The notes under the pieces are model-generated. The model had not been told where the DNA came from, searched no databases, and saw nothing but the letters and a program-made list of their open reading frames with translations. Made by a program: the position numbers and the translations under genes. A stretch of 64,000 bases of DNA from positions 48,370 to 112,369 of the forward strand of contig CAYQJG010000003.1 of the NCBI GenBank assembly GCA_964417715.1, written 5' to 3'. Within the stretch, counting starts at the first letter, position 1, and each line of letters starts with the position of its first letter. The stretch comes from an uncultured Lentisphaerales bacterium. GTDB taxonomy: Bacteria; Verrucomicrobiota; Kiritimatiellia; RFP12; CAYQJG01. Shown piece after piece: positions 41,053 through 64,000 of this stretch.

Positions 41053-41132
41053 CTTGTGATTGTTGCGCGTAAACCTGGGCTGGTTTCCCCCACGGACCGC
41101 GCATGATTGGCGTGCGCCCCGCGCGGAGCTGC

Positions 41133-42126: not shown

Positions 42127-42164
42127 TGCGGCGTGTGTCGGTGGGGTGCGAGAGGAACAGGGTT

Positions 42165-42440: not shown

Positions 42441-42486
42441 GCCGAATTGTCTTCACTCATTGCTCTTTGGCTTGGCGCGCGCTATT

Positions 42487-42710
42487 TCACATCGACCGTA
42501 GTTTCCAATCCGTATCGGAACTGCCAGCCTTGACGGCAACGGGATAGAACTTGTCGGGCCAACTCTTCTGGGGCTCGATTACCGCCCAGTCGCCCATGTA
42601 GCACATGACGTAGGAGCAATGGGTGACGCCCAGACCATCGATTTTACCGAACACGTCCGGCACCAGCATAATGCACTTCTGCGGATTGAGCGGATTGGGA
42701 CGCCCCCAGA
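42487..42710 (-). pseudogene. C-terminal fragment of an alpha/beta hydrolase paralog
   Basis: PNPLNPQKCIMLVPDVFGK...CYMGDWAVIEPQK aligns with PNPLNPQRYVLLVPEVMGK...CYLGDWLVIEPQK of 33145-35253. Confidence 0.85.
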
Positions 42711-42770
42711 CAGCAAACTCGCCAAGGCGCTGGAGATGACAAGGCGGAATCGTATGTCGAAATGCAACCC

Positions 42771-43856
42771 CTATTTTGAGCCTGATCCGGGAGCTTGCAG
42801 CTTCAGCCATCCCGCCCCCACCAGGAGCCGCCGCGCGTTGTGGCAAAACACGTCCTCGATGTCGGCCCGCGTAAGACCGACACGCTCTGCCGCGCGGTGG
42901 AAGGCCATAAGCTCCTCGTACAGAAAGAGGGTCAGGCGCTCTGCCTCGGGCCCCTCAACCTCCTCCATGTTCCGGTCGCCGGACACGTCGCCGTAAAGCC
43001 CCTTGGGAACCACATTGACATAGCGACCGTCGCGCACGATGCGCCGCATGCGCATGCGTAGGATGGGCAGGTCGGTGCCGAAGAGCATCCGCTGCGGTCC
43101 CACGCAACGCAACGCCTGCCCGAAGACCTGATCGTTGGTGTTGGCGCTGAAGTCGAAGCACAGCCGTTCGGTCGCGGCCAATACCTCGAAGGCATTGCCG
43201 ACGTCCTCGTTGCAGTAAGCGCGGCCGACATGGGCGACGATCAGCTTCAGATTCGGGAAGTCGCGCTCGATTTCCAGCAGGTGCGCCAGGTTGAGCGGAT
43301 CCCTGAGCCGCCCGTCACGCGGGATGTGCAGCATTATGATCGAGCCATGGCGGTCATGCACCTCAAGTTGATGGCGCGGGAAGAAGTCGAAGATGCAGAT
43401 ATCCCTGGCGGGGGTATGGGCCGGGGCCAGCGAAAGGTAGCTCTTGGCGCCGACAAACCCGCCGGCCAGGGTTTTCGCCTCGAGTTCCGCCGCGCTCCAG
43501 ACCGGGTCGGTGAAGATCAGCGCCGGCACGTTGGCACGCCGCGCACAGTCGGCCACATAGGCGTTCTGCCGGTCCAGGTTGCCGCCCACAGGCAGGTTCG
43601 CGAAGATCAGCGGCGTGACGCGCTTGCCGGGCAGCAGCAGGCGGTAGGTCTCCTGCAGGTCCTCGATCGGATTCTCCGCGGCGACGAGCGACGGCCAGGT
43701 GACCGTGCGCTTCTCTCCGGCCTGCGGAACCGGCGGCGGGAAATCGGCCCTGCGCCAGACGTGCGTGTGGATGTCCACCAGCTCGTCCGGCAACCAGTCC
43801 TGCAGGCGCTCCGCATAGAAGCGCCGGTCGACCTCCTTGAGAGTGATCCGTTCCAT
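42771..43856 (-). CDS. Amidohydrolase 2 family protein
   Basis: DIHTH, GAKSY, MLH, VAHVGR, LFGTDLP and HNARRL motifs. Confidence 0.88.
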   Translation of the reverse strand: MERITLKEVDRRFYAERLQDWLPDELVDIHTHVWRRADFPPPVPQAGEKRTVTWPSLVAAENPIEDLQETYRLLLPGKRVTPLIFANLPVGGNLDRQNAYVADCARRANVPALIFTDPVWSAAELEAKTLAGGFVGAKSYLSLAPAHTPARDICIFDFFPRHQLEVHDRHGSIIMLHIPRDGRLRDPLNLAHLLEIERDFPNLKLIVAHVGRAYCNEDVGNAFEVLAATERLCFDFSANTNDQVFGQALRCVGPQRMLFGTDLPILRMRMRRIVRDGRYVNVVPKGLYGDVSGDRNMEEVEGPEAERLTLFLYEELMAFHRAAERVGLTRADIEDVFCHNARRLLVGAGWLKLQAPGSGSK

Positions 43857-43927
43857 GGAATCCTGTTTCGTTCGCGTGACTAGCTTGACATCGTTCTTAC
43901 CCGACGTCCACTCCGCGTCGAGGGTCA

Positions 43928-45499
43928 TCACCTACGCGGAGTGGAGATTGTCGGCGTGGCGGTCTCCTCGCCAAACTTCCGCCGCAGGGCCGCGACCTCC
44001 TTCTTCAAGGCAGGCAGGAATCCGGGACTCAGCACCTTAGTCTCCTCGCCCACATCGAGCATCTCGCGCAAGACCTGCGCCCCGTCAGACTCCGGGTATG
44101 CGTCCACGATGGCGCGGGCGTCCTTGTAGGCCGCCACGAGTTGGCCGTAGCCATCAAGCAGGCGTTGGGCGATGGGCAGGAACGCCGCCGGCTCGCTCAA
44201 TGCCGCGCGCACCTTCCTCCAATCCGCGTAGGCGCGGTAGACGGGGGCGAAGGTTACCATGTCCTTCATGATGGCGCTGAAGTTGGCTGCCGTGTCGCCC
44301 GCGTCGGGCACGAAGCCACCGAACACGCCGGCACGGGTGTCATAGCGTTCCTGCTGCCAGTCGTCGTTGCGGTAGCGGTTGCGGTCCGCCTTCTTGCGGA
44401 AATCCGGAACCTCCATGGGCTTGCCGCCCTCCATCGAACTGCGCAGCGCCTGGATACCGGGGATGGTCACGTCGCAGCCACCGTAGATGTCGAACGGACC
44501 CTTCTCGCCGGTGAGGATCTCACGGGCAAAGTGATAGAGTGTCCAAAAGTCACCGCCGCCGTGCCCGGTCTGCGCGGCCAGTTCGCCCAACCCTTCCCAG
44601 CAGGGGTTCACGGCCAGCATCGGAGAACCGCCCGAGGCCCCGAGGCGCAGTCGAACCCCGTCGTGTCCGATCTCGTAGGCGCCGAGCGTCCCCCACATCC
44701 GTTGCTGGTGGCTGTCGTTGGTGCCGGCCCCCATCAGGTTGCGGACGACGGCACCGTTGTTCATCTGGATCAGTGAGGGGGTCATCCTGCCGTTGCTCGC
44801 GCCGTGGTTGCGCAGGTAGCCGGCAATGGTGGGCCGGGCGCAGAACGTCTCCACCGCCACTGGCCGCGTACCCGTGATGGCCATGACCGGTCCCAGCGAG
44901 TGCGTGCAATAGTAGTGGAAGTCAAACCAGCTCCGCCAGTTGTGCACCATGTGCCCCGGCTTGACGGGAATGCCATCAATGTAGGTATAGGCCAGCGAGC
45001 GGCATTCATGGACGTACTCGTATTCGGCGTAGGCCAGTTCCCCGAACAGCCCCTCCCGCCAGCGGTTGGCCAGCCACATGTTGGCGGCCGAAAACGGATA
45101 GTTCTCGGCCAGATTGTACACCAGCTTGCGCTTCTCCACCTCCTCCACCAGCTTCACCCCCTCGGCCAGGGTGAAGAACGAGGTCACCTCGGAGAGCACA
45201 TGCTTGCCCGCCTGCAGGCACTTGATGGCATGGGGGCCGTGGGCCGGGCAGAAGGTGGCCAGCAGCACCGCGTCGAAGTCCTGCTTGAGGAAATCGGACT
45301 CGTTGTCGGTCACGAAGGCACCCGGATTGTGCTGTAAGAAGCCTTCCCGCATGTGGGCGTTGTAGTCGCACCCCGCGACCACGTCAATGTTGAGGAACTT
45401 GCAGGTGCTGAAGAAATTCATCCCCCGCCCCAGTCCCCATATTCCCAGCCTGATCCGCCTATCCGTGTCAAACACCCGTGGAATTGCTGCCTTCTTCAC
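43928..45499 (-). CDS. Gfo/Idh/MocA oxidoreductase (GH109-like)
   Basis: GIWGLGRG, AGKHVLSEV, AENY, EYVH, YCTHSLGP and GHGGGD motifs. Confidence 0.88.
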   Translation of the reverse strand: MKKAAIPRVFDTDRRIRLGIWGLGRGMNFFSTCKFLNIDVVAGCDYNAHMREGFLQHNPGAFVTDNESDFLKQDFDAVLLATFCPAHGPHAIKCLQAGKHVLSEVTSFFTLAEGVKLVEEVEKRKLVYNLAENYPFSAANMWLANRWREGLFGELAYAEYEYVHECRSLAYTYIDGIPVKPGHMVHNWRSWFDFHYYCTHSLGPVMAITGTRPVAVETFCARPTIAGYLRNHGASNGRMTPSLIQMNNGAVVRNLMGAGTNDSHQQRMWGTLGAYEIGHDGVRLRLGASGGSPMLAVNPCWEGLGELAAQTGHGGGDFWTLYHFAREILTGEKGPFDIYGGCDVTIPGIQALRSSMEGGKPMEVPDFRKKADRNRYRNDDWQQERYDTRAGVFGGFVPDAGDTAANFSAIMKDMVTFAPVYRAYADWRKVRAALSEPAAFLPIAQRLLDGYGQLVAAYKDARAIVDAYPESDGAQVLREMLDVGEETKVLSPGFLPALKKEVAALRRKFGEETATPTISTPRR

Positions 45500-45539
45500 A
45501 ATCGTTCCTTTCTTTTGGATGACATCCTACGCGCTCACC

Positions 45540-46712
45540 TCATCCGCGCCCGTGTTTCCGGTAATGCGCGAAGCCTTCGATCAGGGTCTTGATGTTCTCC
45601 AATGGTACGCCAGGGGCGACGGAACTGCTGCAGCCGAGCATGAGGCCGACTCTTGGCCCCTTCTCCACCAGCCACGCCATCTCGCGCGTGACGTCGGCCG
45701 GCTTGCCGAGCGGCAAGGTGGTGGTGACCGAGACGCCGGCGATGATGAAGAGATCGCCGCCGTCGCGGGTCTTCATCTGGCAGATCTTCTCGTAGTCCAT
45801 GCCGTCCTCGTACTGGAAGCCCTGGAAGCCGCCGATGCCGCACTCCAGCAGGCGCGGCACCATGTCCATCAGGTTGCCGTCGCAATGCCAGATCAGGCGG
45901 ATGCCGGCGTCGAGCAACGGCTTGATCGAGCGGGCGAAGTGGGGGAACCAGATGGCGTCGAGGGTTTTGATGTCCACCAGCATGCCGCGCGAATCGGCCA
46001 TGTCGTGATCGAGCCTCAACAGCCGCGGCAGGCCGCCCTCGATGATGGCACGGGCGGCAATGCGGTTGGAGACGGTCGCCGCATCGGCGTTGATCCTGAA
46101 TCCCCGCTCGATCACCTCCGGATAGAGCGCGTAGGCCATGAAGTAGTTGGCGTAACCGTAATGCCAATAGAGAAGCTCCGGGAAGGCGAAGAACCCGCCG
46201 TAAGGGCCCTTAAGCATGTTCATGCCGAAGAGCTTCTGAACTTCGACCTCGCCGGCAATGCGCTTGCGCACTTCCTTATCCGCGTTGGCTTCCAGATTGC
46301 GCCGCCGCTGTTCACACTGCGGGAAGAGAAACTTTTCCATGTGCTCGACGGCAGCCTCAGGCGAATCGATCACCATGCCGTCGCGAACGATCTCCTCAGC
46401 GCCGGTCGTGGCGCCACGCTCGGCGGCCGTGTCGTAGCCCTGGTCCTTCATGCTCAGGGGGTTCGTGGGAATCCACTGGTCAATGAAGCAGCACCCGGCT
46501 TTGAGGTGGAACTCGCGGTAGACGCGGACCGGATCCTTCTCATAGCTGCCGGGCGCATTGCCGGAGATCTCATCCTGGTGCGACCACTGCATGTCGTTCA
46601 GGAACCACGCCGGGATCCCCCGCGTCGGCTTCAGCGCAATGGTATCCAGCGCCAGTTGCGCGTTTTCCTGCCAGTTGCCCTCAAATTCCTGATATCCGAT
46701 GATGTTGCTCAT
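45540..46712 (-). CDS. URO-D/MtaA-CmuA superfamily protein
   Basis: DHDMAD, WHCDGN, FQGFQYE and VAPGVPLENI motifs. Confidence 0.75.
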   Translation of the reverse strand: MSNIIGYQEFEGNWQENAQLALDTIALKPTRGIPAWFLNDMQWSHQDEISGNAPGSYEKDPVRVYREFHLKAGCCFIDQWIPTNPLSMKDQGYDTAAERGATTGAEEIVRDGMVIDSPEAAVEHMEKFLFPQCEQRRRNLEANADKEVRKRIAGEVEVQKLFGMNMLKGPYGGFFAFPELLYWHYGYANYFMAYALYPEVIERGFRINADAATVSNRIAARAIIEGGLPRLLRLDHDMADSRGMLVDIKTLDAIWFPHFARSIKPLLDAGIRLIWHCDGNLMDMVPRLLECGIGGFQGFQYEDGMDYEKICQMKTRDGGDLFIIAGVSVTTTLPLGKPADVTREMAWLVEKGPRVGLMLGCSSSVAPGVPLENIKTLIEGFAHYRKHGRG

Positions 46713-46741
46713 GTCTTCCCTTCATACTGAACACGGACTGA

Positions 46742-48139
46742 TCAGATCCTCACGACATCCAGCCCGCACTGGCGGCCGAAGGCGGCGATGGCCTCGGCGC
46801 GGTCACCCAGGACCAGCGCGCTGTGGTGGGTACCGCCGGCGCGGGAATAGGCCTCCAGGAAGGGCGCTACCGGCATACGCGGACGCACCCAGGTGCGCAC
46901 CACGTCGCGCATGGCCGGGTCAAGCGAGGCGTCCTCGGCCATGACGTCAACCGGGGCAACAATCAACACGAACGTATTGTCCGGGCCGGGGGCGAGGTTG
47001 ACGAACACGGCCGGGCCGGGCTTGGCGACGCAGGTCAGGATGGCCGGGTCGAGCGAGCCGCCGCTGAAAAACGGCTTGGAGATGACGCGCGGGCGCTCGC
47101 CGGCCACCGTCGGGCTGATCTCGCCCATGTGCGAGAGGAACAGGCTGTTGCCGGCCCAGTCGGCGCAGAAGATCTCGGTGAAGGTCACGGTGCCGAAGGC
47201 CCGCGTCAGGGCGCCGACCAGCGCGGCGGTGAGCACGTCGCCCTCGCCGGCATAGCCGAGTCCCCGCCCCATCGCCTTGGAGATCTCGAAGAACGGCATG
47301 GTGTTGGCCGGCCGGTCGCCGCGGTTGAAGGCCTGGAAATTGACGCTGAGCCCGCGGTACCCGCCCTCGTCCAGGAGGCGACGCAGCCCCAGCCCGACGC
47401 GCACCGAGCGCGCATGGGCCTCGGCGGGCAGCTCGCAGGCGTAACGCCCGCGATCCTCCGCGACTTCGCGCTCCACCTCGGTATCGGTCACCTTCAAGAT
47501 GGCCGCGTCGAGCTTGTCGAGCCCGATCTGCTTGACACTGACCCCCAGCTTGGCGGCCAACACCTCCTCGGACACGGCGAAATCGCCCATGCCGGCAAAG
47601 GTTTCGCCGACGCGCAGGATGCGGCTGCCGCGGAGGGACTTTGCCCCGGCGGCGGCGCGCACCAGTGCCGCCGTCCGGTCCAGCAGCGCCGGATCGGCGT
47701 CGTGGCCGGCAACGATCTCGAAGGCGCGGCGGTGACGGCGCAGCATCGAGGCGAAGTCCATCACGCCGTGCACGCCGTGGTTGTACATGATGCGGTCGGC
47801 ACGCGCGCCAACACCGAAGTCCGCGTCCATGGTGGTGTCGAGAATGACGATGGGGAGCTTCGTCGCCAGGCAGGCGTCAAGCGCCTCGAGCGAAGGGGAG
47901 TAGGCCAGATGCACCGTGACGATGCACTCCACCCCGGCGGCATCGAACTGGCCGATGGCGTCCGTAAACTCCCCGGCTACGCGGCAGACCGGCGCGGTCT
48001 GCACCGCCAATCCACGCGCCGCAAGCCCGGCGGCGATCCGCTTGATGAAGCCGTCGAAGCCTGGCCGGTAGGTGGGCAGGATGTCGTCGTAGAGCTTCAA
48101 GTAGAAGGGCAGGAGACCGGCTTTGAGCTGTTGGTTCAT
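46742..48139 (-). CDS. L-arabinose isomerase-like sugar isomerase (AraA/FucI superfamily)
   Basis: NHGVHG, YAGEGD, FTE, SHMGE and GGTHH metal-ligand motifs. Confidence 0.82.
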   Translation of the reverse strand: MNQQLKAGLLPFYLKLYDDILPTYRPGFDGFIKRIAAGLAARGLAVQTAPVCRVAGEFTDAIGQFDAAGVECIVTVHLAYSPSLEALDACLATKLPIVILDTTMDADFGVGARADRIMYNHGVHGVMDFASMLRRHRRAFEIVAGHDADPALLDRTAALVRAAAGAKSLRGSRILRVGETFAGMGDFAVSEEVLAAKLGVSVKQIGLDKLDAAILKVTDTEVEREVAEDRGRYACELPAEAHARSVRVGLGLRRLLDEGGYRGLSVNFQAFNRGDRPANTMPFFEISKAMGRGLGYAGEGDVLTAALVGALTRAFGTVTFTEIFCADWAGNSLFLSHMGEISPTVAGERPRVISKPFFSGGSLDPAILTCVAKPGPAVFVNLAPGPDNTFVLIVAPVDVMAEDASLDPAMRDVVRTWVRPRMPVAPFLEAYSRAGGTHHSALVLGDRAEAIAAFGRQCGLDVVRI

Positions 48140-48211
48140 GGTCTGGTTCCTTGCGTACGTTCCATCGGATTGGACTGACCAGACTGATCCGACCGATCTC
48201 ATGCTGGTTGC

Positions 48212-49528
48212 CTACACACCGATCCCCTGCCCCGCCAGGAGGGCGGCGCCGCGGGCGCCGGCGGAGCGGCCGCCGATACTCACTTCAAGCCCGCTGATTC
48301 CGGCCACGATCTGCGGCCAAAGCGGGCTGTTGGCCGGACCACCAACCATCACCGCACGGGTGTAGTGCAGGCCATGGGTTTTCAAGGCCATGATCTTGGC
48401 GTTCAGCAGCCGGGCGGCGCCTTCCATGATGGCACGACTGAGGTTGCGGCGGTCGCCCGCAAACGGCCGCGGTGGTTCGCGGAGGTCGATCTCCAGCCCG
48501 CCGGCACCGGGTTCGGCCTGCGCCGCAAACTCGTTGAAAATGCGCAACCGGTCGGACTCACCCGGGGCGATGACGTTCTCGATATACCAGTCAATGCTCC
48601 GGCCGATGTATGGCACGGAGAAGATGCCGCCCCACGGCAGGCCCTCGTCGGCAAGGAATGGATCGCACAGCATGCCGGCGTCGATGATGGCCTGCCGGTC
48701 CCGGCAGGGCGCGAACCCCACCCACGAGGTGCCGCAGGACAGCATGAGCTGGCCCGGCTCCACCACGCCGACGGCGCGCGCCGCGGCCGGATGGTCGAAA
48801 CAGCCGGTAACGACGGTGGTCCGGGCGGAGAGTCCGGTGTCGCGCCGGGCCTGCTCGGTCAGCGGGCCGACGACCGCGCCGGAGGGCACGAGCGCCGGAA
48901 GTTTCTCCCGTGGGATGCCAAGCCGCCGGAGGAACGGTTCATGGTACGTGCGGGAGATCTGCTCCTGCAGATGGAAGGTGGTGGCGGTGGAATGGTCCAT
49001 CAGCCAGCGGCCGGTTAGACGCCACAGCAGCCAGTCGGTATCCATGCCGTAGCGTCCGGCGGTCCGGTAGAGATCCGGACGGTTCTCCCGCAGCCACGCC
49101 AGATGCCCCAGCGGGAAGCTGGTGACGCAGGGCCAGCCGGTGATTTGGGTGACCTCCGCCGAAGTGAGGCCGGCCAGGTCGGCGGGGGGTTGCTGTTCGG
49201 CGCGATGGTCCATCCAGTTGATGATGTTCATCAGGGGCGCGCCGGCGGCATCGGTCAGCAGGGTGTTGCCGGAGGCGGCGGCCATGGCGATGGCGCCGAC
49301 CTCGCCGGGAGCGGCTGCGACGAGGTCACGGATCACGCCGCACACATTCCGGTAATGCCGTTGCGGATCCACCTCCACCCAGCCCTCATGGGGGTGGATG
49401 AAAGTGGAGTCTGCGCCGGCCTCGGCCAGCACCACGCCCCGGACATCCGTCAGGACACCCTTGATGACGCTGGTGCCCAGATCCAGCCCGATGAGGCAGG
49501 CTTCAGGGTTGCATGCGGCGGTTTTCAT
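48212..49528 (-). CDS. FGGY-family carbohydrate kinase
   Basis: IGLDLGTSVIK, GWVEVDP, WMDHR, GCFDH, SCGTS and MVGGPA motifs. Confidence 0.9.
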   Translation of the reverse strand: MKTAACNPEACLIGLDLGTSVIKGVLTDVRGVVLAEAGADSTFIHPHEGWVEVDPQRHYRNVCGVIRDLVAAAPGEVGAIAMAAASGNTLLTDAAGAPLMNIINWMDHRAEQQPPADLAGLTSAEVTQITGWPCVTSFPLGHLAWLRENRPDLYRTAGRYGMDTDWLLWRLTGRWLMDHSTATTFHLQEQISRTYHEPFLRRLGIPREKLPALVPSGAVVGPLTEQARRDTGLSARTTVVTGCFDHPAAARAVGVVEPGQLMLSCGTSWVGFAPCRDRQAIIDAGMLCDPFLADEGLPWGGIFSVPYIGRSIDWYIENVIAPGESDRLRIFNEFAAQAEPGAGGLEIDLREPPRPFAGDRRNLSRAIMEGAARLLNAKIMALKTHGLHYTRAVMVGGPANSPLWPQIVAGISGLEVSIGGRSAGARGAALLAGQGIGV

Positions 49529-49564
49529 GTTCGACAAAACACCCACGTCATGGAACCGACGGCC

Positions 49565-50410
49565 TCAAGATTCACCTTCTCTGCCGCCGGTTGGCGCCAG
49601 CGTAACGTCTTTCACGGCCTTGCCAACCCATTGTTGAGTGGACTTGTCAAGACCATCGTCCACCAGCAGACAATCGATCTTCTCCCAACCGGTGAAACGG
49701 ACAAAGGCGGTCTTGCCGAATTTGCTGCTGTCAGCCACCAGGATGGTGCGCCTGGCATTGGCGATCATGGCCCGGGAGACGCGCGCGATCTGCTGGCTGC
49801 TGGTATAGAGCCCACGGGCGTCCACGGCATCGGCCCCGATGAAGGCCAGGTCGGCGCGGAAGGCGGCCAGGTTGTCCTCGGTGAGCGGCCCGGAGAGGTC
49901 GGGACTGTTCTTGCTGACGGTGCCGCCCAGCAACACCAGTTCCAGATTGCTGTAGGCCAGCAGCGCCGAGGCGATGGCCAGCGAGCTGGTCAATACGTTC
50001 AATTGGGGGATGCCGCCGAGTGCCCGGGCCACCTCCAAAGTGGTGGTGCCGGTGTCGAGGATCACCGTCATTCCCGGCTTCACCAGCTCCGCCGCCGCCC
50101 GGGCGATGGCCCGCTTTTCGGCCAGGCAGGATTGCCGGCGCTTCTGGAACTTGAAAGCCACGATGGAAGGTGCCGCCAGGCGGGTTCCGCCATGGGTGCG
50201 GGTGATCCGCCCCTGCTGTTCCAGGATATCCAGGTCGCGGCGGATGGTCATGGAGGTCACCTGGAACCGTTCCGTCAGTTCGGCGACGCTGACCTCTTCG
50301 CGCCCGGCGAGGGCTTCCAGAATTTTGTTGATCCGCAAGGAAGAAGAGGTAGTGTTCATAGGGTTTCCACAAAGGGATTGGGGGAGCATGGCATATTCAC
50401 GGACATTCAT
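49565..50410 (-). CDS. DeoR/GlpR-family transcriptional regulator
   Basis: VTSMTIRRDL, RTHGG, EKRAIA, LDTGTT and ADSSKF. Alternative start at 50359. Confidence 0.93.
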   Translation of the reverse strand: MNVREYAMLPQSLCGNPMNTTSSSLRINKILEALAGREEVSVAELTERFQVTSMTIRRDLDILEQQGRITRTHGGTRLAAPSIVAFKFQKRRQSCLAEKRAIARAAAELVKPGMTVILDTGTTTLEVARALGGIPQLNVLTSSLAIASALLAYSNLELVLLGGTVSKNSPDLSGPLTEDNLAAFRADLAFIGADAVDARGLYTSSQQIARVSRAMIANARRTILVADSSKFGKTAFVRFTGWEKIDCLLVDDGLDKSTQQWVGKAVKDVTLAPTGGREGES

Positions 50411-51978
50411 GCCAGCGCCGCCAGCGCCCGGTGCATGGCGTCCACCACGAAAGCAATCACCGCCCGGTCGGCAGTCAGCGGCAATTTGGTCAGCACCACC
50501 GGGGGGCAGTCCGCCTTGTAGGTCTGGGCGCTCAGGTCCAAACCACCCCGGTTCAGTTCGGCGGCGAAAGCGTTGGCCCTGCCCCGGTCAACGAAACAGA
50601 TGGTGGTCATATGGCGCCAGCCATCAACCCCGATAACGGCACGGGGAAATCGGGCGGCCAGTTGGCGGACCTGCGCCTCAAATTCGGCCCCCAACTCCGC
50701 CGTCACGGCGGCGTTGGCTTGCGCCCATTCCATGGTGACCAGATAAGCCAGGGAGGCAAGTTCCTCCTGGCCGTTGGTCACCAGGGCGCCAAACTGGGGC
50801 ATGACATCCATGGCGGCGCTGAACAGAATGCGCGAGGCGGGATATTCGCCGCCGGGGAACCCCTTACCGACCGCCACAAAGGTCGGCTTGAGCCCATACT
50901 CGCGGAACATGAACAGTTGCGGCGCCCACATGCAGGACTGGATCTCGTCCACCACGGTCGGCACATCGTGCTTCTCACAAAGGCCATGGGCATGGTGCAG
51001 AAACTCCGGCGTCAGGCGGCGGCCGCCATAGTTCATCATGATGACTTCATGGAAGAAGCCGGCAATCTTGTAATCGCCCTGTTCATATTCACTGAAGGCC
51101 CGGTCCAGATCTCCCAGGCAGTTGGGACGGATGGGAACCACTTTCCAGGCACCGGCGGCGGTCAAGATTTCATGCAAGCCCGGCCACATTCCCCGCATCA
51201 TCTGGGTGAGCACCGTGGTGCCATGGTAGTTGGCCTGCACCCCCCCATCGTCGTTGCCCATCACCAGGATGACCGGGATGCGGCCCTGATAGCGGGGGGG
51301 TGGCATCTCCGGCTGCATGCGATGGAAACGGGCGAGAACCATCTTCAGCGCGGCCTCCACCGCCAAACTGCCAGTCTCCAAGTTCAGCACCCGGTTGAGC
51401 ACCCGGAGGTCATCCTGGCGCGCCATCACGGCCGCCAGTCCGGCCTGGTCCTCCCGTGACAAGCCGTTGGCCGTGCGGATGAGTTCCTCCTCCAGCCGGC
51501 GGGTGATGAAACCGCGTGTGTTGTTGTGCGTGGCATTCGGGATACCAAGCGCCCGTGCCTGACCCAGAAGAGCATAGCCGGGAAAGCCATGTCCCAGCGG
51601 CGTATGGTAATGCTCGCTCTTGGTGATCAGGTACAACCGCCCGTCCTCCCCGAGCCGGTAATAGCCCAGGGCGCTCAACGGCGCCGCTGCGGTTGAGGCC
51701 GCCGCGCAGAACTTTGAGGAACCCGCACCGGCGGCCGTGCGGGCCAACGGCCCGGCAAGTACCTGCCTGCCCACCTGATCCAGCATGCCCGCCAAGCGCC
51801 TCTGCAATGCCTGTGGAAAGAAGTCGACAGGCTGACTCGCGGCGACCTCCAGATCACCCGGCTGCTCGCCGGCGAGGCACGCCCGCGCCCCGCACGCCGC
51901 TTTCACATAGTCTGTCCCAAGCAGGTCTGTCAACGACCGTGCCACGGGAACGAACGCACTGGAACCAGAGTTGCACAT
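50407..51978 (-). CDS. Class III PLP-dependent aminotransferase
   Basis: TGSLAVEAALK, YHGTT, VVDEIQS and VGKGFPGG (PLP lysine). Confidence 0.88.
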   Translation of the reverse strand: MCNSGSSAFVPVARSLTDLLGTDYVKAACGARACLAGEQPGDLEVAASQPVDFFPQALQRRLAGMLDQVGRQVLAGPLARTAAGAGSSKFCAAASTAAAPLSALGYYRLGEDGRLYLITKSEHYHTPLGHGFPGYALLGQARALGIPNATHNNTRGFITRRLEEELIRTANGLSREDQAGLAAVMARQDDLRVLNRVLNLETGSLAVEAALKMVLARFHRMQPEMPPPRYQGRIPVILVMGNDDGGVQANYHGTTVLTQMMRGMWPGLHEILTAAGAWKVVPIRPNCLGDLDRAFSEYEQGDYKIAGFFHEVIMMNYGGRRLTPEFLHHAHGLCEKHDVPTVVDEIQSCMWAPQLFMFREYGLKPTFVAVGKGFPGGEYPASRILFSAAMDVMPQFGALVTNGQEELASLAYLVTMEWAQANAAVTAELGAEFEAQVRQLAARFPRAVIGVDGWRHMTTICFVDRGRANAFAAELNRGGLDLSAQTYKADCPPVVLTKLPLTADRAVIAFVVDAMHRALAALA

Positions 51979-51982
51979 GCAA

Positions 51983-52037
51983 TGTTTCTTTATGTTCTTC
52001 TTTGTGCGTATCGTACACCAACGGCGCGCGGCGTCAA
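51983..52037 (-). promoter_or_regulatory. Sigma70-like promoter with phased direct repeats (candidate DeoR operator)
   Basis: TTGACG-16-TACGAT; TGTT/TGTT/TGTG at 51983, 51993 and 52003. Confidence 0.6.
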
Positions 52038-52159
52038 GTGCAAATCCAAGCCCGGGCAGGCCAGGGATCCAGTCAGTCTCCAGATCCGTCAGCGGTGGGT
52101 TGGGTTTCTGTCCGCAGATCAGGTTCAGCTCCTGCGGCCACACTATTGCTGCACTTGCT

Positions 52160-53203
52160 CTAGCCGCGGGAAATGATCCGTTCCGCGTTGCGCCACAGGA
52201 TGCGGTCCAACACCTCAGCCGGAAGCCCGACGCCGTGGATCGTGTAGCCGCCTCGTTGCCGCTTGAAGGGCGGATGCTCCTGGAGGTGATCCGTGGACAG
52301 GAACTCCACCGAGCAGCGCACGAGGTCCAGGGATGTCTCGATGTAGCGATCCGCCGGATCGCGCCCGGCCAGCGGCACCTCGTAGGGCTGATAGAGGGAC
52401 TGCGCCTGCATGCCGGTCGGGACATTCTCATCATCATAGATGAGGTCAGTCCCGAACAGAACGCGGTCGGCGTAAGCCGTCAGGAACTCCCGCGCATGCC
52501 GGGCGCGCCGGTTACTGCGGCCCAGGATGGGAATCCGCGCGGAGCAATCGAAGACGAGATTGGGCAGCGCGTCGAGGTCGTCCGCAGCCTGGTCCAGGGA
52601 CTCGCCTCGGCTTCCAATGTGCGGCGCGATGAACTGCGTCGTGGGAAAGCGTCGGATCACGTCATTGCGCTCGGCAATGAGTTCATCGCGACTGGGAAAC
52701 CCCTTGCGGTAATACGTCCACCAGTCGTAACTGCCGTACAGCACGCCATTCCAGAAATTGTGCTCATCGACCGGCTGCCAGAAGAAACTTGGATCGGCCG
52801 TATGGATGAGCACGGGGATTCCCAGTTCGCCGGCCTGGCGCCAGATGGGATCGAAGCGGGGATCGTTCACCCGCAGCAGCGCGCCATCCCGGCCCCGGCA
52901 TGAAAGCCCCAGCGATTTGTAGATCTTGAGGCCCCGCATTCCAGCCCGAACATCCTCCTCCATCTGCGCGGCCGCCTGCTCGCCAAATTCCGGCTCGTTG
53001 ACGCGCGACAGATCCACGTTACCGAACACCACGAAACGCCCGGGATAGCGCCGGAACACCTCGAGATGCCGGCGCAGGGATTCTCCAAATCCGTCATGCC
53101 ATTCCAGCGTGACCGACCAGGCGATGCCGGCCCGGTCCATGACCGCCACCGCCAGATCCACATGCTGTGGCAGGACGTGCGTATGGATGTCGATCAGTTT
53201 CAC
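52160..53203 (-). CDS. Amidohydrolase 2 family protein
   Basis: IDIHTH, GLKIYK, PVLIHTADP, APH and LFGTD motifs. Confidence 0.88.
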   Translation of the reverse strand: MKLIDIHTHVLPQHVDLAVAVMDRAGIAWSVTLEWHDGFGESLRRHLEVFRRYPGRFVVFGNVDLSRVNEPEFGEQAAAQMEEDVRAGMRGLKIYKSLGLSCRGRDGALLRVNDPRFDPIWRQAGELGIPVLIHTADPSFFWQPVDEHNFWNGVLYGSYDWWTYYRKGFPSRDELIAERNDVIRRFPTTQFIAPHIGSRGESLDQAADDLDALPNLVFDCSARIPILGRSNRRARHAREFLTAYADRVLFGTDLIYDDENVPTGMQAQSLYQPYEVPLAGRDPADRYIETSLDLVRCSVEFLSTDHLQEHPPFKRQRGGYTIHGVGLPAEVLDRILWRNAERIISRG

Positions 53204-56461: not shown

Positions 56462-57343
56462 CTATTTTGACCGGCTCGTGTTGAGCGTGCGGCGGTAGGC
56501 GGCCGGTGGAAGTGAAAAGTGACGGTGGAAGGCTTTGGATAGATGGTAGGCATCGCAGAATCCGGTCTGGGCAGCCACGGCATCCAGTTTCAACCCGCTC
56601 ATGATCAGGGCTCGGGCGGACTCCAGCCGCATGCGGTTGAAGGTGGCCAGGGGGGGGCGGCCGGCTTCGGCGGCATATTTGTGGGAGAGTGTGGACGGGC
56701 TGATGCACATGACCCTGGCGACTTTCGCGAGTGAGATCTGGCCTCCGACATGGCCGGAGAGGATCGCATCTACTTCCGTTACAAAGGACGAGGACGACCC
56801 GACGGGGTCCGGGCCAATGGCCAGGTCCGTGCCCGCTGTTTCCGGCACGACCCGGCGCAGGAGATGGATCACGGTGCACAACGCGGCTTGCGCTGCCCAG
56901 AACCCGGCTGCGCCATGTTCTACCCCAGCGCTGGCGGCCGCCTTCAGTTGGGGCAGCAGGAGGCCCTGCGTATCCCGGATCCGCGCGAAACACCGCCCCT
57001 CGGGAATCACCTCCGCCAGTCCGGCCTCGTATCCGCCTTCGAAGATGACGAAGGCGGATTCAATCATGCGGGTGCAGGATCGCTGGTCCTGCCAATAGGT
57101 CGTATGCGGCGGGTAGAGGTGCGCAACACCCGGGGGACGTTCCAGCCAGGGGGACCTGGCGGTGCCAACGCGGACTAGCCCGCAGTGACTGCATGAATAG
57201 TCCAGCACCCAGCAGGGAAACGCAAACCGCCCGTTGAAGCGGCAGGGGATGCTGGTGCCGTGCATGGCGGTGTTGACCCGCGGCAAGAGCCGGCCCGATT
57301 CCTGCCATGAGTATCCGCCAATCGATCCGGGGTTTGCAGACAT
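56462..57343 (-). CDS. AraC-family transcriptional regulator
   Basis: ISPSTLSHKY...RMRLESAR...VAAQTGFCDAYHLSKAFHRHFSLPP. Confidence 0.92.
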   Translation of the reverse strand: MSANPGSIGGYSWQESGRLLPRVNTAMHGTSIPCRFNGRFAFPCWVLDYSCSHCGLVRVGTARSPWLERPPGVAHLYPPHTTYWQDQRSCTRMIESAFVIFEGGYEAGLAEVIPEGRCFARIRDTQGLLLPQLKAAASAGVEHGAAGFWAAQAALCTVIHLLRRVVPETAGTDLAIGPDPVGSSSSFVTEVDAILSGHVGGQISLAKVARVMCISPSTLSHKYAAEAGRPPLATFNRMRLESARALIMSGLKLDAVAAQTGFCDAYHLSKAFHRHFSLPPAAYRRTLNTSRSK

Positions 57344-57473
57344 GCCGGTTCCGCCCTTCTGGTATTGCAGGAATATACATTAAATTCGCAATACCGTCTA
57401 TTTTCAAATGCGCCTCGAAAGCCTAAATTCTCTCCATTCAAAGGGAAATGGCAAACGGCAAGGAATCCTGCAG
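57344..57473. promoter_or_regulatory. Divergent araC/adh promoter region
   Basis: Leftward TAGACG-17-TATATT (57400-57372); TATTGC...GCAATA dyad; conserved in two other copies. Confidence 0.7.
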
Positions 57474-58589
57474 ATGCGTGAATATACAGCCAAGGCGGCG
57501 GTCTTTGTCAAGGCGGGGGCGGCGCTGGAGATTCGTTCCTATCCGGTGAGCCCGCCGCGGGGCGACCGGGTGTTGCTGAAGCTCAAGTTGAGCGGGATTT
57601 GTGGCACGGACATCCACATCCTTTCGGGACGGCTTCCGATCCCGCCGTCCTTCATCCCCGGCCATGAGTTCATCGGGACGGTTGAAGCAGCCGGTCCGCG
57701 GGCGAAGGTGGATGGTTTGGGACAGGCGCTGCGGACGGGTGATCTGGTGATTGCCTGTGTTGCCGATCCCTGCGGCAAGTGCTTCACCTGCAAGCGGGGT
57801 GGACAGGCCAACTGCCTGAATTTCGGGGTCACCAACATCCGGAATCCGCAAGAGGCACCCCACCTGTTCGGCGGGTTCGCGGAGCGGTTGTACCAGCCGG
57901 CCGCCACGCTCGTGCGCGTGCCGCGGGGGATTCCCGCCGAGGCGGTGGCGGCGTTTCCCTGCGCCGGTCCGACGGCGATCCACGGGTTCGGTCGGGCAGG
58001 CGGGCTCTCCAAGGGAGAGCTCGTGGTGGTCCAGGGCACGGGGCCGGTGGGGCTATTCGCCATTGCCTGGGCGCATGCGGCCGGATGCCGGGTGGCGGCG
58101 ATCGGGTCGGCGTCCAACCCTGAGCGCATGGCCCTGGCGCGCCGGCTCGGGGCGGAGAAGATCTGGGACTATCGTGCCGGTACCCCGGCTGACCGTGCGG
58201 CGGAGATCAAGGCCTGGGGTGCGCGTTACAAGCGCGGGGACGGCGCGGACGTGGTCTTCGAGGCTAGTGGTGCCCCGGCGGCCATTCCCGAGGGGCTCGG
58301 CATGGTGCGAACCCTGGGGCGCTACATTGTGCCTGGCCAGTATTCGGCCAGCGGAAGCGTGGCCATCAACCCCGAACAGATCACCTTCAAGGCGCTGACC
58401 ATCGTGGGGAGTTCCCAGTACGCGCTGGCCGATATCAAGTCCTATCTGGCGTTCCTGAAGGCCAACCCGCGGCTCCACGGGCCATTTGCCGCCTGTATCA
58501 CCCACCGTTTCAAGGTGGATGAGGCGGCCAAGGCTTGTGCCGACGCGTCGGCCGGGAGAGCCGTGAAGGCGGTGTTTGAAGGGGTATGA
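57474..58589 (+). CDS. Zinc-dependent alcohol/sugar dehydrogenase (MDR family)
   Basis: GICGTD, GHEF, CGKCFTC...C structural Zn site and GTGPVG. Confidence 0.93.
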   Translation: MREYTAKAAVFVKAGAALEIRSYPVSPPRGDRVLLKLKLSGICGTDIHILSGRLPIPPSFIPGHEFIGTVEAAGPRAKVDGLGQALRTGDLVIACVADPCGKCFTCKRGGQANCLNFGVTNIRNPQEAPHLFGGFAERLYQPAATLVRVPRGIPAEAVAAFPCAGPTAIHGFGRAGGLSKGELVVVQGTGPVGLFAIAWAHAAGCRVAAIGSASNPERMALARRLGAEKIWDYRAGTPADRAAEIKAWGARYKRGDGADVVFEASGAPAAIPEGLGMVRTLGRYIVPGQYSASGSVAINPEQITFKALTIVGSSQYALADIKSYLAFLKANPRLHGPFAACITHRFKVDEAAKACADASAGRAVKAVFEGV

Positions 58590-58590
58590 C

Positions 58591-60681
58591 ATGATCCGGC
58601 AGGCAAACGCATTGGGGTGGCGCGAGCTGTTGACATCGCTGCGAACCGCCCGCCACGCATGGACTGGAAAGTATGACATCCGGCCGTACTGGCGCGAGTT
58701 GGCTTTCTTGGAGCATGCCGGCGCGCCGTTGCCGGTGCAGTGGGCGCAGACTTTTGCCGCTGTGCTGGACCACATGGAATTGCACACCTGCCACGGTGAG
58801 GCGATCCTGGGAAGCCGCCTGGGTTTCATGGCCCGGCAACTCCCGGAAGGGCAGGATCAAGCCGGTTTCACGGCCCTGGTAGAGGCGAATAGCCGCCGGC
58901 GCCGCCGTGACTTCGGCGCCGGGTGGGATCATACCCTGGCGGACTATCCCACCCTGTTGGCTGAAGGAGTGGGGGGATTGCTGGCCCGCATCGAGGCTTC
59001 CTCGCTGACGCATCCCGAACCCGCTGAACAGGCGGCTTTGCGCGGCATGCGCATCACCCTGGAAGGGCTCAGTCGCTTCATCCTCCGGCATGCCGGCCTG
59101 GGTGCCGTCCCGGAAATGCGTGCCCGGCTTGAATGGATCAGCCGACACCCGCCGCGTACCTTCCATGAGGCCATCCAGTTGGTGTGGCTGACCCATCTGG
59201 CCTTTGTCAGCGAGGGGCGTTTTGCCAATGCCCTGGGGCGGATCGACCAATACCTGTGTCGTTTCTACGAGGCGGACCTGGCTGCTGGCCGGCTTGATCG
59301 TGAGGGCGCCCTGGAGCTGCTCTGCTCCCTCTGGGCGCGTGTGGATGAATTGGGGGAAGTGACGAACATTTGCATCGGTGGCGTCAGGCCGGACGGGCTG
59401 GATGGCACCAATGACCTTTCCGCCCTCTGCATTGAGGCGACCCGGCTGGTGAAGTCACCCTCCACCAACCTGTCGGCCCGGTTTCATGATGGCACGCCGG
59501 ATACGTTTCATCGGCAGGCCTTCGAGTGCATCCGCACCGGGCTGGGTTTTCCGGCCATCTTCAATGACCATGTGTTGATCCCCGGACTGGTGGAGATCGG
59601 CATTCCGGTTGAGATCGCGCGTGACCATTGCATGGTCGGCTGCATCGAGACCATGCTGGCCGGGCGGCAGCAGGCCTGGTCTGACAGCCGTTACAATGCG
59701 CCCGTCAATGTGCTGGCGGCCCTCCGGCGGCTGGCGGCCGAACCCGTGCCAGGCTGGGAACGGTTGCAGGAGCTGTTTGCCGAGGAGTTCCGGAGCGGCG
59801 TGGCCCGCCATGTGGCATCCGTGAATGCCCACATCGCCTCGTTCCCGGCGACGGATTTCCCCGACCCCTTCCTGTCGGCGCTGACCCGCGATTGTATCGG
59901 GCGTGCCCGCGACCTGAATGATGGGGGGGCGGAGTTCCGGAGGTTCCACGGGGTGGCGGTCATGGGGCTGGCCAATGTGGCCGACAGCCTTGCCGCAGTG
60001 AAAAAGCTGGTCATCGAGGAGCAGAAGGTGGATCTGGCCGGGTTGATCGCTGCGCTGGAGCGCGACTTTGAAGGGAACGAGCCCCTGCGGCAGATGTTGA
60101 TAAATCGGGCGCCGAAGTACGGAAATGGCGAGCCCTATGTGGATGATATTGCCGCCTGGATGGTCCAGCTGGCCGCCGAAACCTGTCTGCAGCATGCTAC
60201 CGTTGACGGGGGGCGGTTTGTCGCCGCCATGGCGGCGAATGTCTCCAACATCTATGCCGGGCGGGAAGTCGGCGCCACACCGGACGGGCGGCGGGCCCAT
60301 ACGCCGCTGTCCGACGCGGCATCGCCCTTCTTCGGCAGGGACACGCATGGCCCGACAGCCTTCCTCCGCTCCGTGGCCCGCCCCGATTACCGGCTGGTGC
60401 TCACGGGAAGTGTGATCAACATGAAGTTCGAGCCCGACTACTTCGATGGGGAAGAGGGGGTTGCAAGGTTCGGTGCGCTCACGCGCTTCTTTGTCCGCCA
60501 CCGGATTCCTGAACTCCAGTTCAACTTCACGGGCACACAAGCCTTGCTTGCGGCGAAGCAGCATCCGGAGAACCATCGTGACCTGGTGGTGCGCGTCAGT
60601 GGTTTCTCGGGCTACTTCGTCTGGCTGGCCCCGGAAGTCCAGGATGACATTATCCGCCGCCGCAGCCATGGTGCGCCATGA
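58591..60681 (+). CDS. Glycyl radical enzyme (PFL2/dehydratase-like), substrate unknown
   Basis: TFHEAIQ, GRIDQYL, GCIE Cys loop, PKYGN, GATPDGR and LVVRVSGFS Gly loop. Confidence 0.93.
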   Translation: MIRQANALGWRELLTSLRTARHAWTGKYDIRPYWRELAFLEHAGAPLPVQWAQTFAAVLDHMELHTCHGEAILGSRLGFMARQLPEGQDQAGFTALVEANSRRRRRDFGAGWDHTLADYPTLLAEGVGGLLARIEASSLTHPEPAEQAALRGMRITLEGLSRFILRHAGLGAVPEMRARLEWISRHPPRTFHEAIQLVWLTHLAFVSEGRFANALGRIDQYLCRFYEADLAAGRLDREGALELLCSLWARVDELGEVTNICIGGVRPDGLDGTNDLSALCIEATRLVKSPSTNLSARFHDGTPDTFHRQAFECIRTGLGFPAIFNDHVLIPGLVEIGIPVEIARDHCMVGCIETMLAGRQQAWSDSRYNAPVNVLAALRRLAAEPVPGWERLQELFAEEFRSGVARHVASVNAHIASFPATDFPDPFLSALTRDCIGRARDLNDGGAEFRRFHGVAVMGLANVADSLAAVKKLVIEEQKVDLAGLIAALERDFEGNEPLRQMLINRAPKYGNGEPYVDDIAAWMVQLAAETCLQHATVDGGRFVAAMAANVSNIYAGREVGATPDGRRAHTPLSDAASPFFGRDTHGPTAFLRSVARPDYRLVLTGSVINMKFEPDYFDGEEGVARFGALTRFFVRHRIPELQFNFTGTQALLAAKQHPENHRDLVVRVSGFSGYFVWLAPEVQDDIIRRRSHGAP

Positions 60682-61637
60682 ACGCGGGGCCCCAGGCGCA
60701 TGAAGCCTCACCTGCCATCCGGGGGATGGTCTTTGATATCCAGCCGTTCTCCCTGCACGATGGGCCGGGAATCCGTACCACGGTGTTCCTGAAAGGATGC
60801 CCGCTGCACTGTCCCTGGTGCCATAATCCTGAGTCCTGGCAGGCGTCTGGACAGATTGCCTGGACGCCGGAGTTGTGCGTGGGGTGCGCCGCGTGCAGCC
60901 GGGTATGCCCCGCTGGCGCCCACCGGATGGACCCGGGCAGGCATGCGTATGACCGGCCGCGCTGCCAGGCCTGCGGTAAATGCGCTGAGGTTTGTCCATC
61001 CAGGGCACTGGAGTGGTCCGGCCGGAGACTGTCGGTCGCGCAGGTGATGGAGCGCGTCCTTGTGGATCGCGAGTTTTACGGCGGATCCGGCGGCGGGATG
61101 ACGGTGTCCGGCGGTGAACCGCTGGCACAGGCGGAATTTACCGCGGCGCTGCTGGATGCCGGCCGCTCGGCTGGAATTCATACGGCCGTGGACACCTCAG
61201 GCGCCGGACGGCTGGACGATCTCCGGCGTATGGCCAGCCGGTCGGATCTGGTGCTGTTCGACATCAAGGCCGCGCCGGAAGATTATGAGCGCCTGACCGG
61301 TGCCCGCTATGAGCAGGTCGTGGCGGGCCTGCAGGTGATCCGGTCACAGGGCCTTGCGCTCTGGCTGCGGTTGCCCATGATTCCCGGAGTCAATGATTCC
61401 CGGAACCATTTTGAAAACATCGCGAAGCTGGCCGATGAGTTCCGGCCGGACCGGATTGAGATGATCCCCTACCATGTGCTGGGGGCAGGCAAGCGGACAC
61501 GCTTCGGATTGGCGCCAACCCCCATGCCCGATCAGCCCCCGGCGGAACCCGGCCAGATCAAGCAATGGGCCGGATGGTTTCGCGAATTGGGGGTGAATGT
61601 GGCCATGCCGGACACGGGCCGCGGGCGCGCAGGCTGA
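60678..61637 (+). CDS. Glycyl radical enzyme activase (radical SAM, with ferredoxin insert)
   Basis: HDGPGIRTTVFLKGCPLHCPWCHNPE; two CxxCxxCxxxCP motifs; SGGEP. Confidence 0.95.
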   Translation: MNAGPQAHEASPAIRGMVFDIQPFSLHDGPGIRTTVFLKGCPLHCPWCHNPESWQASGQIAWTPELCVGCAACSRVCPAGAHRMDPGRHAYDRPRCQACGKCAEVCPSRALEWSGRRLSVAQVMERVLVDREFYGGSGGGMTVSGGEPLAQAEFTAALLDAGRSAGIHTAVDTSGAGRLDDLRRMASRSDLVLFDIKAAPEDYERLTGARYEQVVAGLQVIRSQGLALWLRLPMIPGVNDSRNHFENIAKLADEFRPDRIEMIPYHVLGAGKRTRFGLAPTPMPDQPPAEPGQIKQWAGWFRELGVNVAMPDTGRGRAG

Positions 61638-63263: not shown

Positions 63264-63364
63264 TGGATGGCTCGCGTCGGCCCTGTGCTACCGTGCAACA
63301 CAGGGATCTTAACGAGGTTCTGACCGCAAGCTAGTCCTATCACGGTTTCATTATGGAGAGTCGT

Positions 63365-64000
63365 ATGCGAATTTACCTGCCTTTGGGATGTGTCCTTCTT
63401 CTTACGTCAATGGGCGTTGCCCAGCAGTCATCGAACGCGCCAGCCTCCCAGCCGTCCTGGGAAGTCCAGTTCCAGGCGCTCGCGGCTCATGCCAAGGAGA
63501 TCGAATCCCAGTTGGGCGCTTTTGATAGGTCGAACAATCCGACTATCGCTGACGCGCTTGACAACGTTCGCCTGCGTATCGAGCAAATCCACTCCGTGTC
63601 CGCCAAGGTCGCAGACAAACGGGGCAGAGGCAACGGGCCCGCACTCGCTGCGCGCATTCCGGAATTGAAGGCATCGCTGGACTACTACTTTGAGGCGCTC
63701 AAGGCTGGCAAGGATCCGCACCGGGGTAAAGCCGGGGGCTTGCGCGCGATGAGGTCCAAGATCGACGGCGAACTGCTTTCCTATGACTTCTGGCTGCCTA
63801 ATGACTACGACCCCAAGAAGAAGTACCCCCTCGAGGTGCGGCTGCACTCCGGCGGCGGCGTGATTTGGAAAGCCGATACCAGTTGGGGTATTCCGGTCGA
63901 CCAGGTTGGGCCTTACGCTGCGTTCGCCGGATATGACCGCAAGTGGAGTCTCTGGAAGAACGAGAGCATCATCATCCACCCCTGCGGGCGCGGCCAGAAC
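63365..64000 (+). CDS. Secreted alpha/beta hydrolase paralog of 33145-35253 (partial, runs off the window; absent from the ORF track)
   Basis: Manual translation MRIYLPLGCVLLL...RSKIDGELLSYDFWLPNDYDPKKKYPLEVRLHSG...HPCGRGQN; GGAGAG RBS. Confidence 0.85.
   Translation, partial: MRIYLPLGCVLLLTSMGVAQQSSNAPASQPSWEVQFQALAAHAKEIESQLGAFDRSNNPTIADALDNVRLRIEQIHSVSAKVADKRGRGNGPALAARIPELKASLDYYFEALKAGKDPHRGKAGGLRAMRSKIDGELLSYDFWLPNDYDPKKKYPLEVRLHSGGGVIWKADTSWGIPVDQVGPYAAFAGYDRKWSLWKNESIIIHPCGRGQN

Follow-up and report, generated by a model that had tools for sequence, protein, structure and literature searches.

A compact glycyl radical enzyme operon of an uncultured Lentisphaerales bacterium as a candidate 1,2-eliminase system with a conserved oxidoreductase partner

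What reaction is catalysed by the unassigned glycyl radical enzyme (GRE) that is encoded, between a zinc-dependent alcohol dehydrogenase (ADH) and an activase, on contig CAYQJG010000003.1 of an uncultured Lentisphaerales bacterium, and does this enzyme belong with the sugar catabolic genes beside it? GREs catalyse difficult anaerobic chemistry: in this superfamily, the activase uses S-adenosylmethionine (SAM) and a reduced 4Fe-4S cluster to form a glycyl radical, which in turn gives rise to a thiyl radical on a Cys residue. The stretch analysed here, referred to as the window, comprises 64,000 nucleotides (positions 48,370 to 112,369 of the contig, forward strand). On balance, sequence and genomic-context comparisons favour reading the AraC-controlled operon as a working GRE system of an uncharacterised compact clade, in which the GRE would be a 1,2-eliminase-type C-O lyase acting on a neutral hydroxyl-rich substrate and the ADH would act on the carbonyl.

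Open reading frames (ORFs) and their translations define three tightly packed plus-strand genes at positions 57474-61637, which code for the Zn-ADH, the GRE and the radical-SAM activase, in a window with a G+C content of ~65%. The features of the operon and its control region are as follows (P0002 residue numbers equal those of the 696-aa protein plus 5):

56462..57343, minus strand: AraC-family regulator, divergent from the operon, with Pfam HTH_18 and HTH_AraC matches at residues 209-285
57344..57473, no strand: divergent intergenic control region of 130 bp, its sequence read and its function assigned from position only
57474..58589, plus strand: Zn-dependent medium-chain ADH of 371 aa (PF08240 and PF00107), in an ORF that opens at 57408
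58591..60681, plus strand: GRE of 696 aa counted from the ATG (PF02901 and PF01228)
59623..59652, plus strand: Cys loop DHCMVGCIET with catalytic Cys356 and Glu358, residues 350-359 of P0002
60592..60606, plus strand: glycyl radical loop RVSGF with Gly676, residues 673-677 of P0002
60678..61637, plus strand: radical-SAM GRE-activating enzyme of 319 aa (TIGR02494; Radical_SAM)

The operon is intact, and its genes abut or overlap: the ADH stop codon (58587-58589) lies 1 nt ahead of the GRE ATG, and the activase ATG overlaps the GRE stop codon by 4 nt. The likely ADH start is the ATG at 57474, which is preceded at 9 nt by an aagga ribosome-binding site and agrees with the point where the homologue and PDB alignments begin; an alternative TTG start of the GRE is found at 58576. 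The control role of the 130-bp spacer is assigned from its position only, because a consensus scan gave just weak sigma-70-like sites, and those on the minus strand; the N-terminal half of the AraC regulator had no family match in the Pfam scan. The adh-GRE-activase operon described in the initial annotation is thus borne out by ORFs, translations and Pfam and NCBIfam domains, and its 696-aa GRE with the DHCMVGCIET and RVSGF loops is found in the translation exactly as written. Its report that microcompartment genes are absent also stands: a search of the whole assembly (90.5% complete) for PF00936, the sole shell-protein family searched, gave no matches, whereas the control genomes matched.

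The GRE scores 346 bits with PF02901 and 76 bits with PF01228 (the latter at residues 579-682). Gly355, Cys356 and Glu358 are invariant among 25 family members, and Arg673, Val674, Ser675 and Gly676 are invariant in the compact family. An AF2 model built on 25 family sequences (pLDDT 90, pTM 0.91) gave Foldseek matches to the listed GRE structures with TMq values of 0.81-0.89 and identities of 21-29%; for the characterised eliminases/isomerases in this set, the identity to the window GRE is 24-29%, and the best match is PflD (8yjo; TMq 0.89, 29% identity). As judged from this predicted structure, the fold is that of the GRE eliminases/isomerases. The available part of a 2026 review (PMC13450708) names the single-Cys GCxE loop (CxE motif) as the mark retained in all GRE eliminases and isomerases, which agrees with the use made of that loop in the initial annotation; in the compact family the corresponding GCIE is invariant. 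The enzyme had also been called short, correctly so because solved GRE eliminases/isomerases have 776-849 aa, compared with its 696 aa.

Within this broad type, the window GRE is roughly equidistant from all characterised GRE classes, because the comparisons with equivalogs, solved structures and models give such close scores. The top sequence match among solved structures is E. coli PflD (8yjo, 315 bits), with glycerol dehydratase (GD), CutC and 1,2-propanediol dehydratase (PD) scoring within 15 bits below it. Against the NCBIfam equivalogs, the scores are 336 bits for PflD (NF007437, cut-off 1109), 325 for HypD (1100), 315 for CutC (1050), 310 for HpsG (1000), 276 for HpfG (1000), and 222 and 199 for arylacetate decarboxylase models (1100 and 1150); the PFL model TIGR01255 gives 89.5 bits with a cut-off of 994. 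With every equivalog so far under its cut-off, the description of the GRE as unassigned holds. The ESM Atlas returned generic GRE clusters only, and the compact clade is not mentioned in the literature searched on GREs, which included the available part of PMC13450708. The window GRE thus appears to be of the known eliminase/isomerase type, with a compact architecture and a conserved Zn-ADH partner, the variant being new.

Several active-site residues align with those of GD. Its Cys433 and Glu435 correspond to Cys356 and Glu358 of the window GRE, and the Cys loops of PflD and CutC align too; GD Trp445 and Asp447 are matched by Trp368 and Asp370, neither of which varies in the family. His119, likewise invariant, aligns with a His residue in PflD and YbiW and with His166 of L003, a paralogue in the same genome; since residue 165 of L003 pairs with GD residue 163, His119 is assigned to the position of GD His164. 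According to the available part of PMC13450708, Glu435 of GD deprotonates the C1 hydroxyl, His164 protonates the leaving hydroxyl, and the CxE Glu forms a hydrogen bond with a substrate hydroxyl in all eliminases/isomerases. The available text of PMC8473560 describes a common substrate-contact site on strand beta-1 (GD His164, HypD His160, CutC Asp216, IslA Gln193), to which the invariant His119 corresponds in the window GRE, and, four residues before it, an Arg that binds anionic groups in IslA and HypD; at this upstream position the compact family has Ala115, not Arg. Given the Cys/Glu/His mapping and Ala115 in place of Arg, the active site would fit C-O elimination on a neutral hydroxylated substrate.

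The same data bear on the possibility that the enzyme performs some other GRE chemistry, acting as a C-N or C-S lyase or a decarboxylase or forming or cleaving C-C bonds. With the family about equidistant from all characterised classes, class assignment falls to a few motif residues, which leaves such chemistry a slight chance. It is very improbable all the same: the Cys loop reads VGCIE, without the adjacent Cys-Cys pair of PFL, the beta-1 Arg of IslA is missing, and the CutC, HpsG and decarboxylase models are far under their cut-offs. Further, the window operon includes no small-subunit genes and no sulfite- or amine-handling genes, and none of the latter were seen among the scanned neighbours of the homologues (145 ORFs chosen by a greedy ORF picker from 439 within 4.5 kb, a non-exhaustive survey).

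The compact class put forward in the initial annotation proved to be a real clade, both in sequence searches and in a FastTree phylogeny. A word-indexed search with the GRE gave 350 matches; the top 120 share 54-76% identity with it, and most of these are 683-728 aa long. An HMMER search run exhaustively over 50%-identity representatives retrieved 6643 relatives at E <= 1e-3; only ~15 clusters, most of them of 690-730 aa, score above 400 bits, and below this value there is a continuum of 750-830-aa GREs. The tree of 96 rows comprised 10 of the 24 family sequences, those of the representatives P0124-P0214 that reach 600 aa or more, two other GREs of the same genome, the Oligosphaera ethanolica homologue (L066), and E. 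coli PflD and YbiW. In it, the window GRE falls into a 16-row clade (support 100) of 688-700-aa members plus one 937-aa fusion; this clade is enclosed by one of 29 rows (support 98), made up of 690-734-aa proteins, and PflD and YbiW, which fall in the opposite half of the tree, are not sister to the compact clade. Species-representative genomes contain 264 loci that encode a relative, and the neighbourhood counts given below rest on the best 80 of them. These 80 come from Lentisphaerae/Victivallales, Phycisphaerae/Planctomycetota, Anaerolineae/Chloroflexia, Armatimonadota, Verrucomicrobiota, Kiritimatiellia and TA06, and include a cultured carrier, O. ethanolica DSM 24202, whose GRE is 44% identical to that of the window.

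Several family members and loci stand out in other ways. P0067 (1068 aa) combines GRE with radical-SAM/ferredoxin Pfam domains and looks like a fusion of GRE and activase, unless two genes were merged in the gene call. P0009, P0013 and P0014, family members that are 69-71% identical, each list an 86,801-base longest contig, which suggests several compact-GRE paralogues on one contig. In three loci, another GRE, only distantly related to that of the window (28-31% identity), is encoded a few kb from the compact one, and the genome studied here has two further unassigned GREs, both under all equivalog cut-offs:

L028:1289-3235, minus strand: second distant GRE
L053:2521-4269, plus strand: second distant GRE
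L066:18022-20052, minus strand: second distant GRE
Contig C34 (L002:859-3977): 738-aa GRE with its own activase
Contig C174 (L003:2-3054): GRE cut by the contig end, with an Fe-ADH upstream and GD as the nearest structure (358 bits)

The partners of the compact GRE were identified by tblastn of 15 window proteins against the 80 loci, with at least 50% query coverage required: the GRE was matched in 80 loci, the ADH in 44, the activase in 21 and the AraC regulator in 18. Among the 53 loci informative for the position of the ADH (at least 1.2 kb on both sides of the GRE), the ADH gene lies on the same strand directly upstream of the GRE gene in 30 and directly downstream in 2, so that the association seen in the window is conserved, with the two genes adjacent in 32 of 53. 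The adjoining ADH orthologues are 41-69% identical and span at least six phyla. Where 3.5 kb or more of sequence is available upstream (58 loci), a homologous divergent AraC gene is found in 16. Of the 21 loci that lack the ADH, at least 9 encode a different NAD(P) oxidoreductase within 1-2 genes or ~3 kb of the GRE gene, of the following kinds:

L019, L023, L044 (ADH-less loci): GFO/IDH/MocA oxidoreductase near the GRE
L031, L017, L024; L039 (outside the informative set); by cluster, L026 and L042: aldo-keto reductase near the GRE
L051, L060 (ADH-less loci): 2-hydroxyacid dehydrogenase near the GRE

With either the ADH or a substitute NAD(P) oxidoreductase next to the GRE, it is the pair of GRE and oxidoreductase that is conserved, often together with the activase and AraC. 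The window ADH has the catalytic-Zn motifs GICGTD and GHE and the structural-Zn motif CGKCFTCKRGGQANC; its best NCBIfam match is TIGR03366 (173 bits, cut-off 328) and its best PDB match is 1vj0 (130 bits). In its loop VAAIGSASNPER, no acidic residue follows beta-2, a hint that the cofactor may be NADP(H). The activase exceeds the TIGR02494 cut-off (303 bits, cut-off 174), and its translation contains the radical-SAM motif CPLHCPWC and two ferredoxin-type cluster motifs of the CxxCxxCxxxCP form.

In the mechanism proposed here, the activase would place the radical on Gly676, which would generate a thiyl radical on Cys356. Cys356 would take a hydrogen from the carbinol carbon of the substrate, and Glu358 of the GCIE loop would deprotonate the hydroxyl on that carbon. 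The resulting ketyl radical could then expel a leaving group attached next to it through oxygen (a hydroxyl, or the oxygen of an ether or ring), with the help of His119 on strand beta-1, to give an aldehyde or ketone. Because of the conserved gene linkage, the co-translated Zn-ADH is expected to reduce this carbonyl or, alternatively, to make the alcohol substrate. The substrate would most likely be a neutral hydroxyl-rich small molecule from anaerobic glycan or ester breakdown.

Some observations weigh against this reading. The ADH gene is not beside the GRE gene in 21 of the 53 informative loci, and an activase gene directly following the GRE gene is seen in only 19 of 63 loci. The size and charge of the substrate are deduced from sequence alignments, and the pocket comparison turns on GD Ser282, Tyr339, Asp447 and Tyr640, which we take to be substrate-binding residues. 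In the phmmer alignment with GD (1r8w), Ser282 is replaced by Ala217 and Tyr640 by Ala553, and the Tyr339 loop is deleted, so that the presumed small-diol pocket residues Ser282, Tyr339 and Tyr640 are not matched in the window GRE; if these roles are right, the two Ala residues and the loop loss argue against a snug pocket for a C3 diol. Paralogue L003, from another part of the tree, has also lost the Tyr339 loop, and the deletion is thus not specific to the clade. A larger pocket, initially argued from this deletion, is weakened by its presence in an unrelated paralogue, and the loop is therefore weighted lightly here.

The pocket residues also bear on the less favoured alternative that the operon encodes a microcompartment-free dehydratase of small diols (1,2-propanediol, glycerol or ethylene glycol), in which the ADH would reduce the aldehyde as an electron sink. 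By analogy, this is a plausible if rather unlikely reading. The combination of GRE, activase and alcohol dehydrogenase follows the logic of DhaB1-DhaB2-DhaT of Clostridium butyricum, the His/Cys/Glu/Asp set of GD is conserved, and GD and PD are among the top structural matches. With no PF00936 shell proteins found, any aldehyde would be left to a soluble ADH. Rhamnose is a source of propanediol, and in 5 Lentisphaerae-type loci rhamnosidase-like genes come after the operon. However, the identity to GD and PD is only 26-27%, Ala stands at the positions of Ser282 and Tyr640 and the Tyr339 loop is lost (with the GD roles taken as above), and the partner is a Zn-dependent medium-chain dehydrogenase/reductase (Zn-MDR) rather than an Fe-ADH. 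In addition, the same genome encodes L003, which resembles GD more closely (358 bits) and is preceded by an Fe-ADH gene. That L003 is the true diol dehydratase and the window GRE must therefore differ can be taken as a weak hint at most, because of the 358-bit score to GD and the cut by the contig end.

For the preferred reading, a C-O lyase of a hydroxyl-rich substrate, further context comes from genes around the homologues. A feature newly noted here is a homologous alpha/beta hydrolase gene, on the same strand upstream of the GRE gene, in 11 of the 80 loci. In L083, the two are separate genes, with the hydrolase gene running 4 nt into the start of the GRE gene; in L077 (933 aa), L071 (944 aa) and representative P0129 (937 aa), the hydrolase and the GRE form a single ORF:

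L077:9260-12061, plus strand: hydrolase-GRE fusion, with a hydrolase domain of ~245 aa at the GRE N-terminus
L071:9218-12052, plus strand: hydrolase-GRE fusion of the same kind

Along their full length, P0129 and the L077 fusion share 53% identity, and the GSMGG nucleophile motif and the conserved Asp and His motifs are retained in each; the fusion is thus natural and conserved. The operon hydrolase has only weak PDB and NCBIfam matches, to esterases, (enol-)lactonases and polyhydroxyalkanoate depolymerases. The window operon has no such alpha/beta hydrolase gene; a GDSL esterase gene is found on the opposite strand, past the AraC gene. Neighbours of the homologues are often carbohydrate-related, including GH9, GH20, GH38, GH78-like and GH42-like proteins and sulfatases, along with polysaccharide deacetylases, esterases, GNAT acetyltransferases and PfkB kinases, and this general carbohydrate and esterase context recurs around compact-GRE homologues. 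Neighbour clusters of GH38, HerA-like and aldo-keto reductase plus Fer4 proteins were rejected as functional links, being confined to a few syntenic Anaerolineae/Chloroflexia loci.

A more tentative proposal, doubtful at present, is that members of the compact clade, which have an obligate oxidoreductase partner and, in some lineages, a hydrolase in the operon or even fused to the GRE, perform a GRE reaction not yet described, which might be radical C-O cleavage of a glycan-derived hydroxy-ether, a deoxy-sugar alcohol or a de-esterified polyol. If true, this would add to the anaerobic degradation of polysaccharides by PVC-group bacteria, Anaerolineae and Armatimonadota a step that has so far gone unrecognised and that needs no microcompartment.

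The sugar genes of the window itself are a different matter. On the minus strand, upstream of the operon, are genes for GDSL, NagB/AgaI-like and PfkB proteins and a 103-aa ORF, and the same cluster includes an Amidohydro_2 protein, a 676-aa protein with a class-III aminotransferase domain, an FGGY kinase and an AraA-like isomerase. The best model for its DeoR regulator is AgaR (190 bits, cut-off 260). Features of this region, and an ORF at the window end, have these positions:

35281-50410, minus strand: two tandem GH123-like genes (~970 aa each), GH109-like/GFO, a second Amidohydro_2, URO-D-like, and AgaR-like DeoR
50407-52437, minus strand: 676-aa ORF, with the class-III aminotransferase domain only at residues 334-671 and no Pfam match in the N-terminal 346 aa
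53200-53511, minus strand: 103-aa ORF, no Pfam/NCBIfam match
63353-64000, plus strand: 216-aa ORF, open at the window end, no Pfam/NCBIfam match

The 676-aa ORF overlaps the next one (52160..53203) by 278 nt, and its true start may therefore be further downstream. In the tblastn search of the 80 loci, there were no matches for the PfkB, NagB-like, GDSL, Amidohydro_2, aminotransferase-like, DeoR, AraA-like and GH1 proteins, nor, at the same minimum coverage of 50% of the query, for two unassigned window ORFs; FGGY had a single weak match (27% identity). Because the cluster does not accompany the GRE in other genomes, it is separate from the GRE cassette, and the window sugar genes are probably unrelated to the operon. 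Judging from its gene content, the cluster is probably a self-contained utilisation locus for GalNAc-type amino sugars that has its own regulator and would need no GRE. The initial annotation had linked the GRE to the divergent kinase, NagB and esterase genes and had named a lack of conserved linkage to the sugar genes among homologues as evidence to the contrary; homologues of these genes occur in 0 of 80 related loci, and the link is not upheld. Nor did its sugar-phosphate substrate gain specific support, as no phosphotransferase system (PTS) or transaldolase/fructose-6-phosphate aldolase (FSA) genes were found among the 145 neighbour ORFs of the non-exhaustive scan.

These results also bear on a PflD/YbiW-like isomerase that would open the ring of an anhydro-sugar or its phosphate, with sugar kinases supplying the substrate. 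PflD is the best match in both sequence (315 bits) and structure (TMq 0.89), and PfkB kinases are encoded near the operon in the window, L010 and L021. The aldo-keto reductase and GFO/IDH/MocA families, members of which occur as neighbours, include known anhydrofructose reductases. Nevertheless, this assignment is improbable: the PflD equivalog score is 336 bits with a cut-off of 1109, PflD and YbiW belong to the other half of the tree, the neighbour scan turned up neither PTS nor FSA, and the window kinase and NagB-like proteins have homologues in none of the 80 loci.

The compact clade is abundant among uncultured glycan degraders, and, according to the available part of PMC13450708, entire GRE clades are still without experimental validation. 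The present result separates the GRE cassette of the window from the adjacent amino-sugar cluster and leaves a simple four-gene cassette with a conserved coupling enzyme that might be used as an assay readout; with a cultured carrier at hand, the cassette is therefore a tractable target for a new substrate or reaction.

Among known systems, those sharing most with the window operon are PflD (E. coli/Streptococcus) and YbiW (E. coli), the C-O lyases of 1,5-anhydrohexitol-6-phosphates known as "GRE isomerases". In common are the GCxE loop, the beta-1 His, the glycyl loop and an activase with ferredoxin-type inserts. However, the identity is 29-33%, the two are not sister groups in the tree, and the window GRE is ~70-115 aa shorter, the compact family missing ~51 aa before beta-1, ~10 later and ~15 in the loop before a barrel strand. 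The E. coli PflD/YbiW operons carry PTS and FSA aldolase genes, none of which were found in the window in Pfam/NCBIfam scans, whereas compact-family loci have the Zn-ADH instead. The glycerol dehydratase of C. butyricum (DhaB1/DhaB2/DhaT) and the GRE-type PD share the module logic of dehydratase, activase and ADH, and equivalents of GD Cys433, Glu435, His164 and Asp447 are conserved in the window GRE; they differ from it in sequence (26-27% identity), in their Fe-ADH partner as opposed to the window Zn-MDR, and in that the window has no microcompartment (PF00936). CutC, HypD, HpsG/HpfG and IslA share the fold and the CxE motif, but the CutC, HypD, HpsG and HpfG equivalogs give the window GRE 276-325 bits with cut-offs of 1000-1100, and the beta-1 Arg of IslA and HypD is missing from the compact family.

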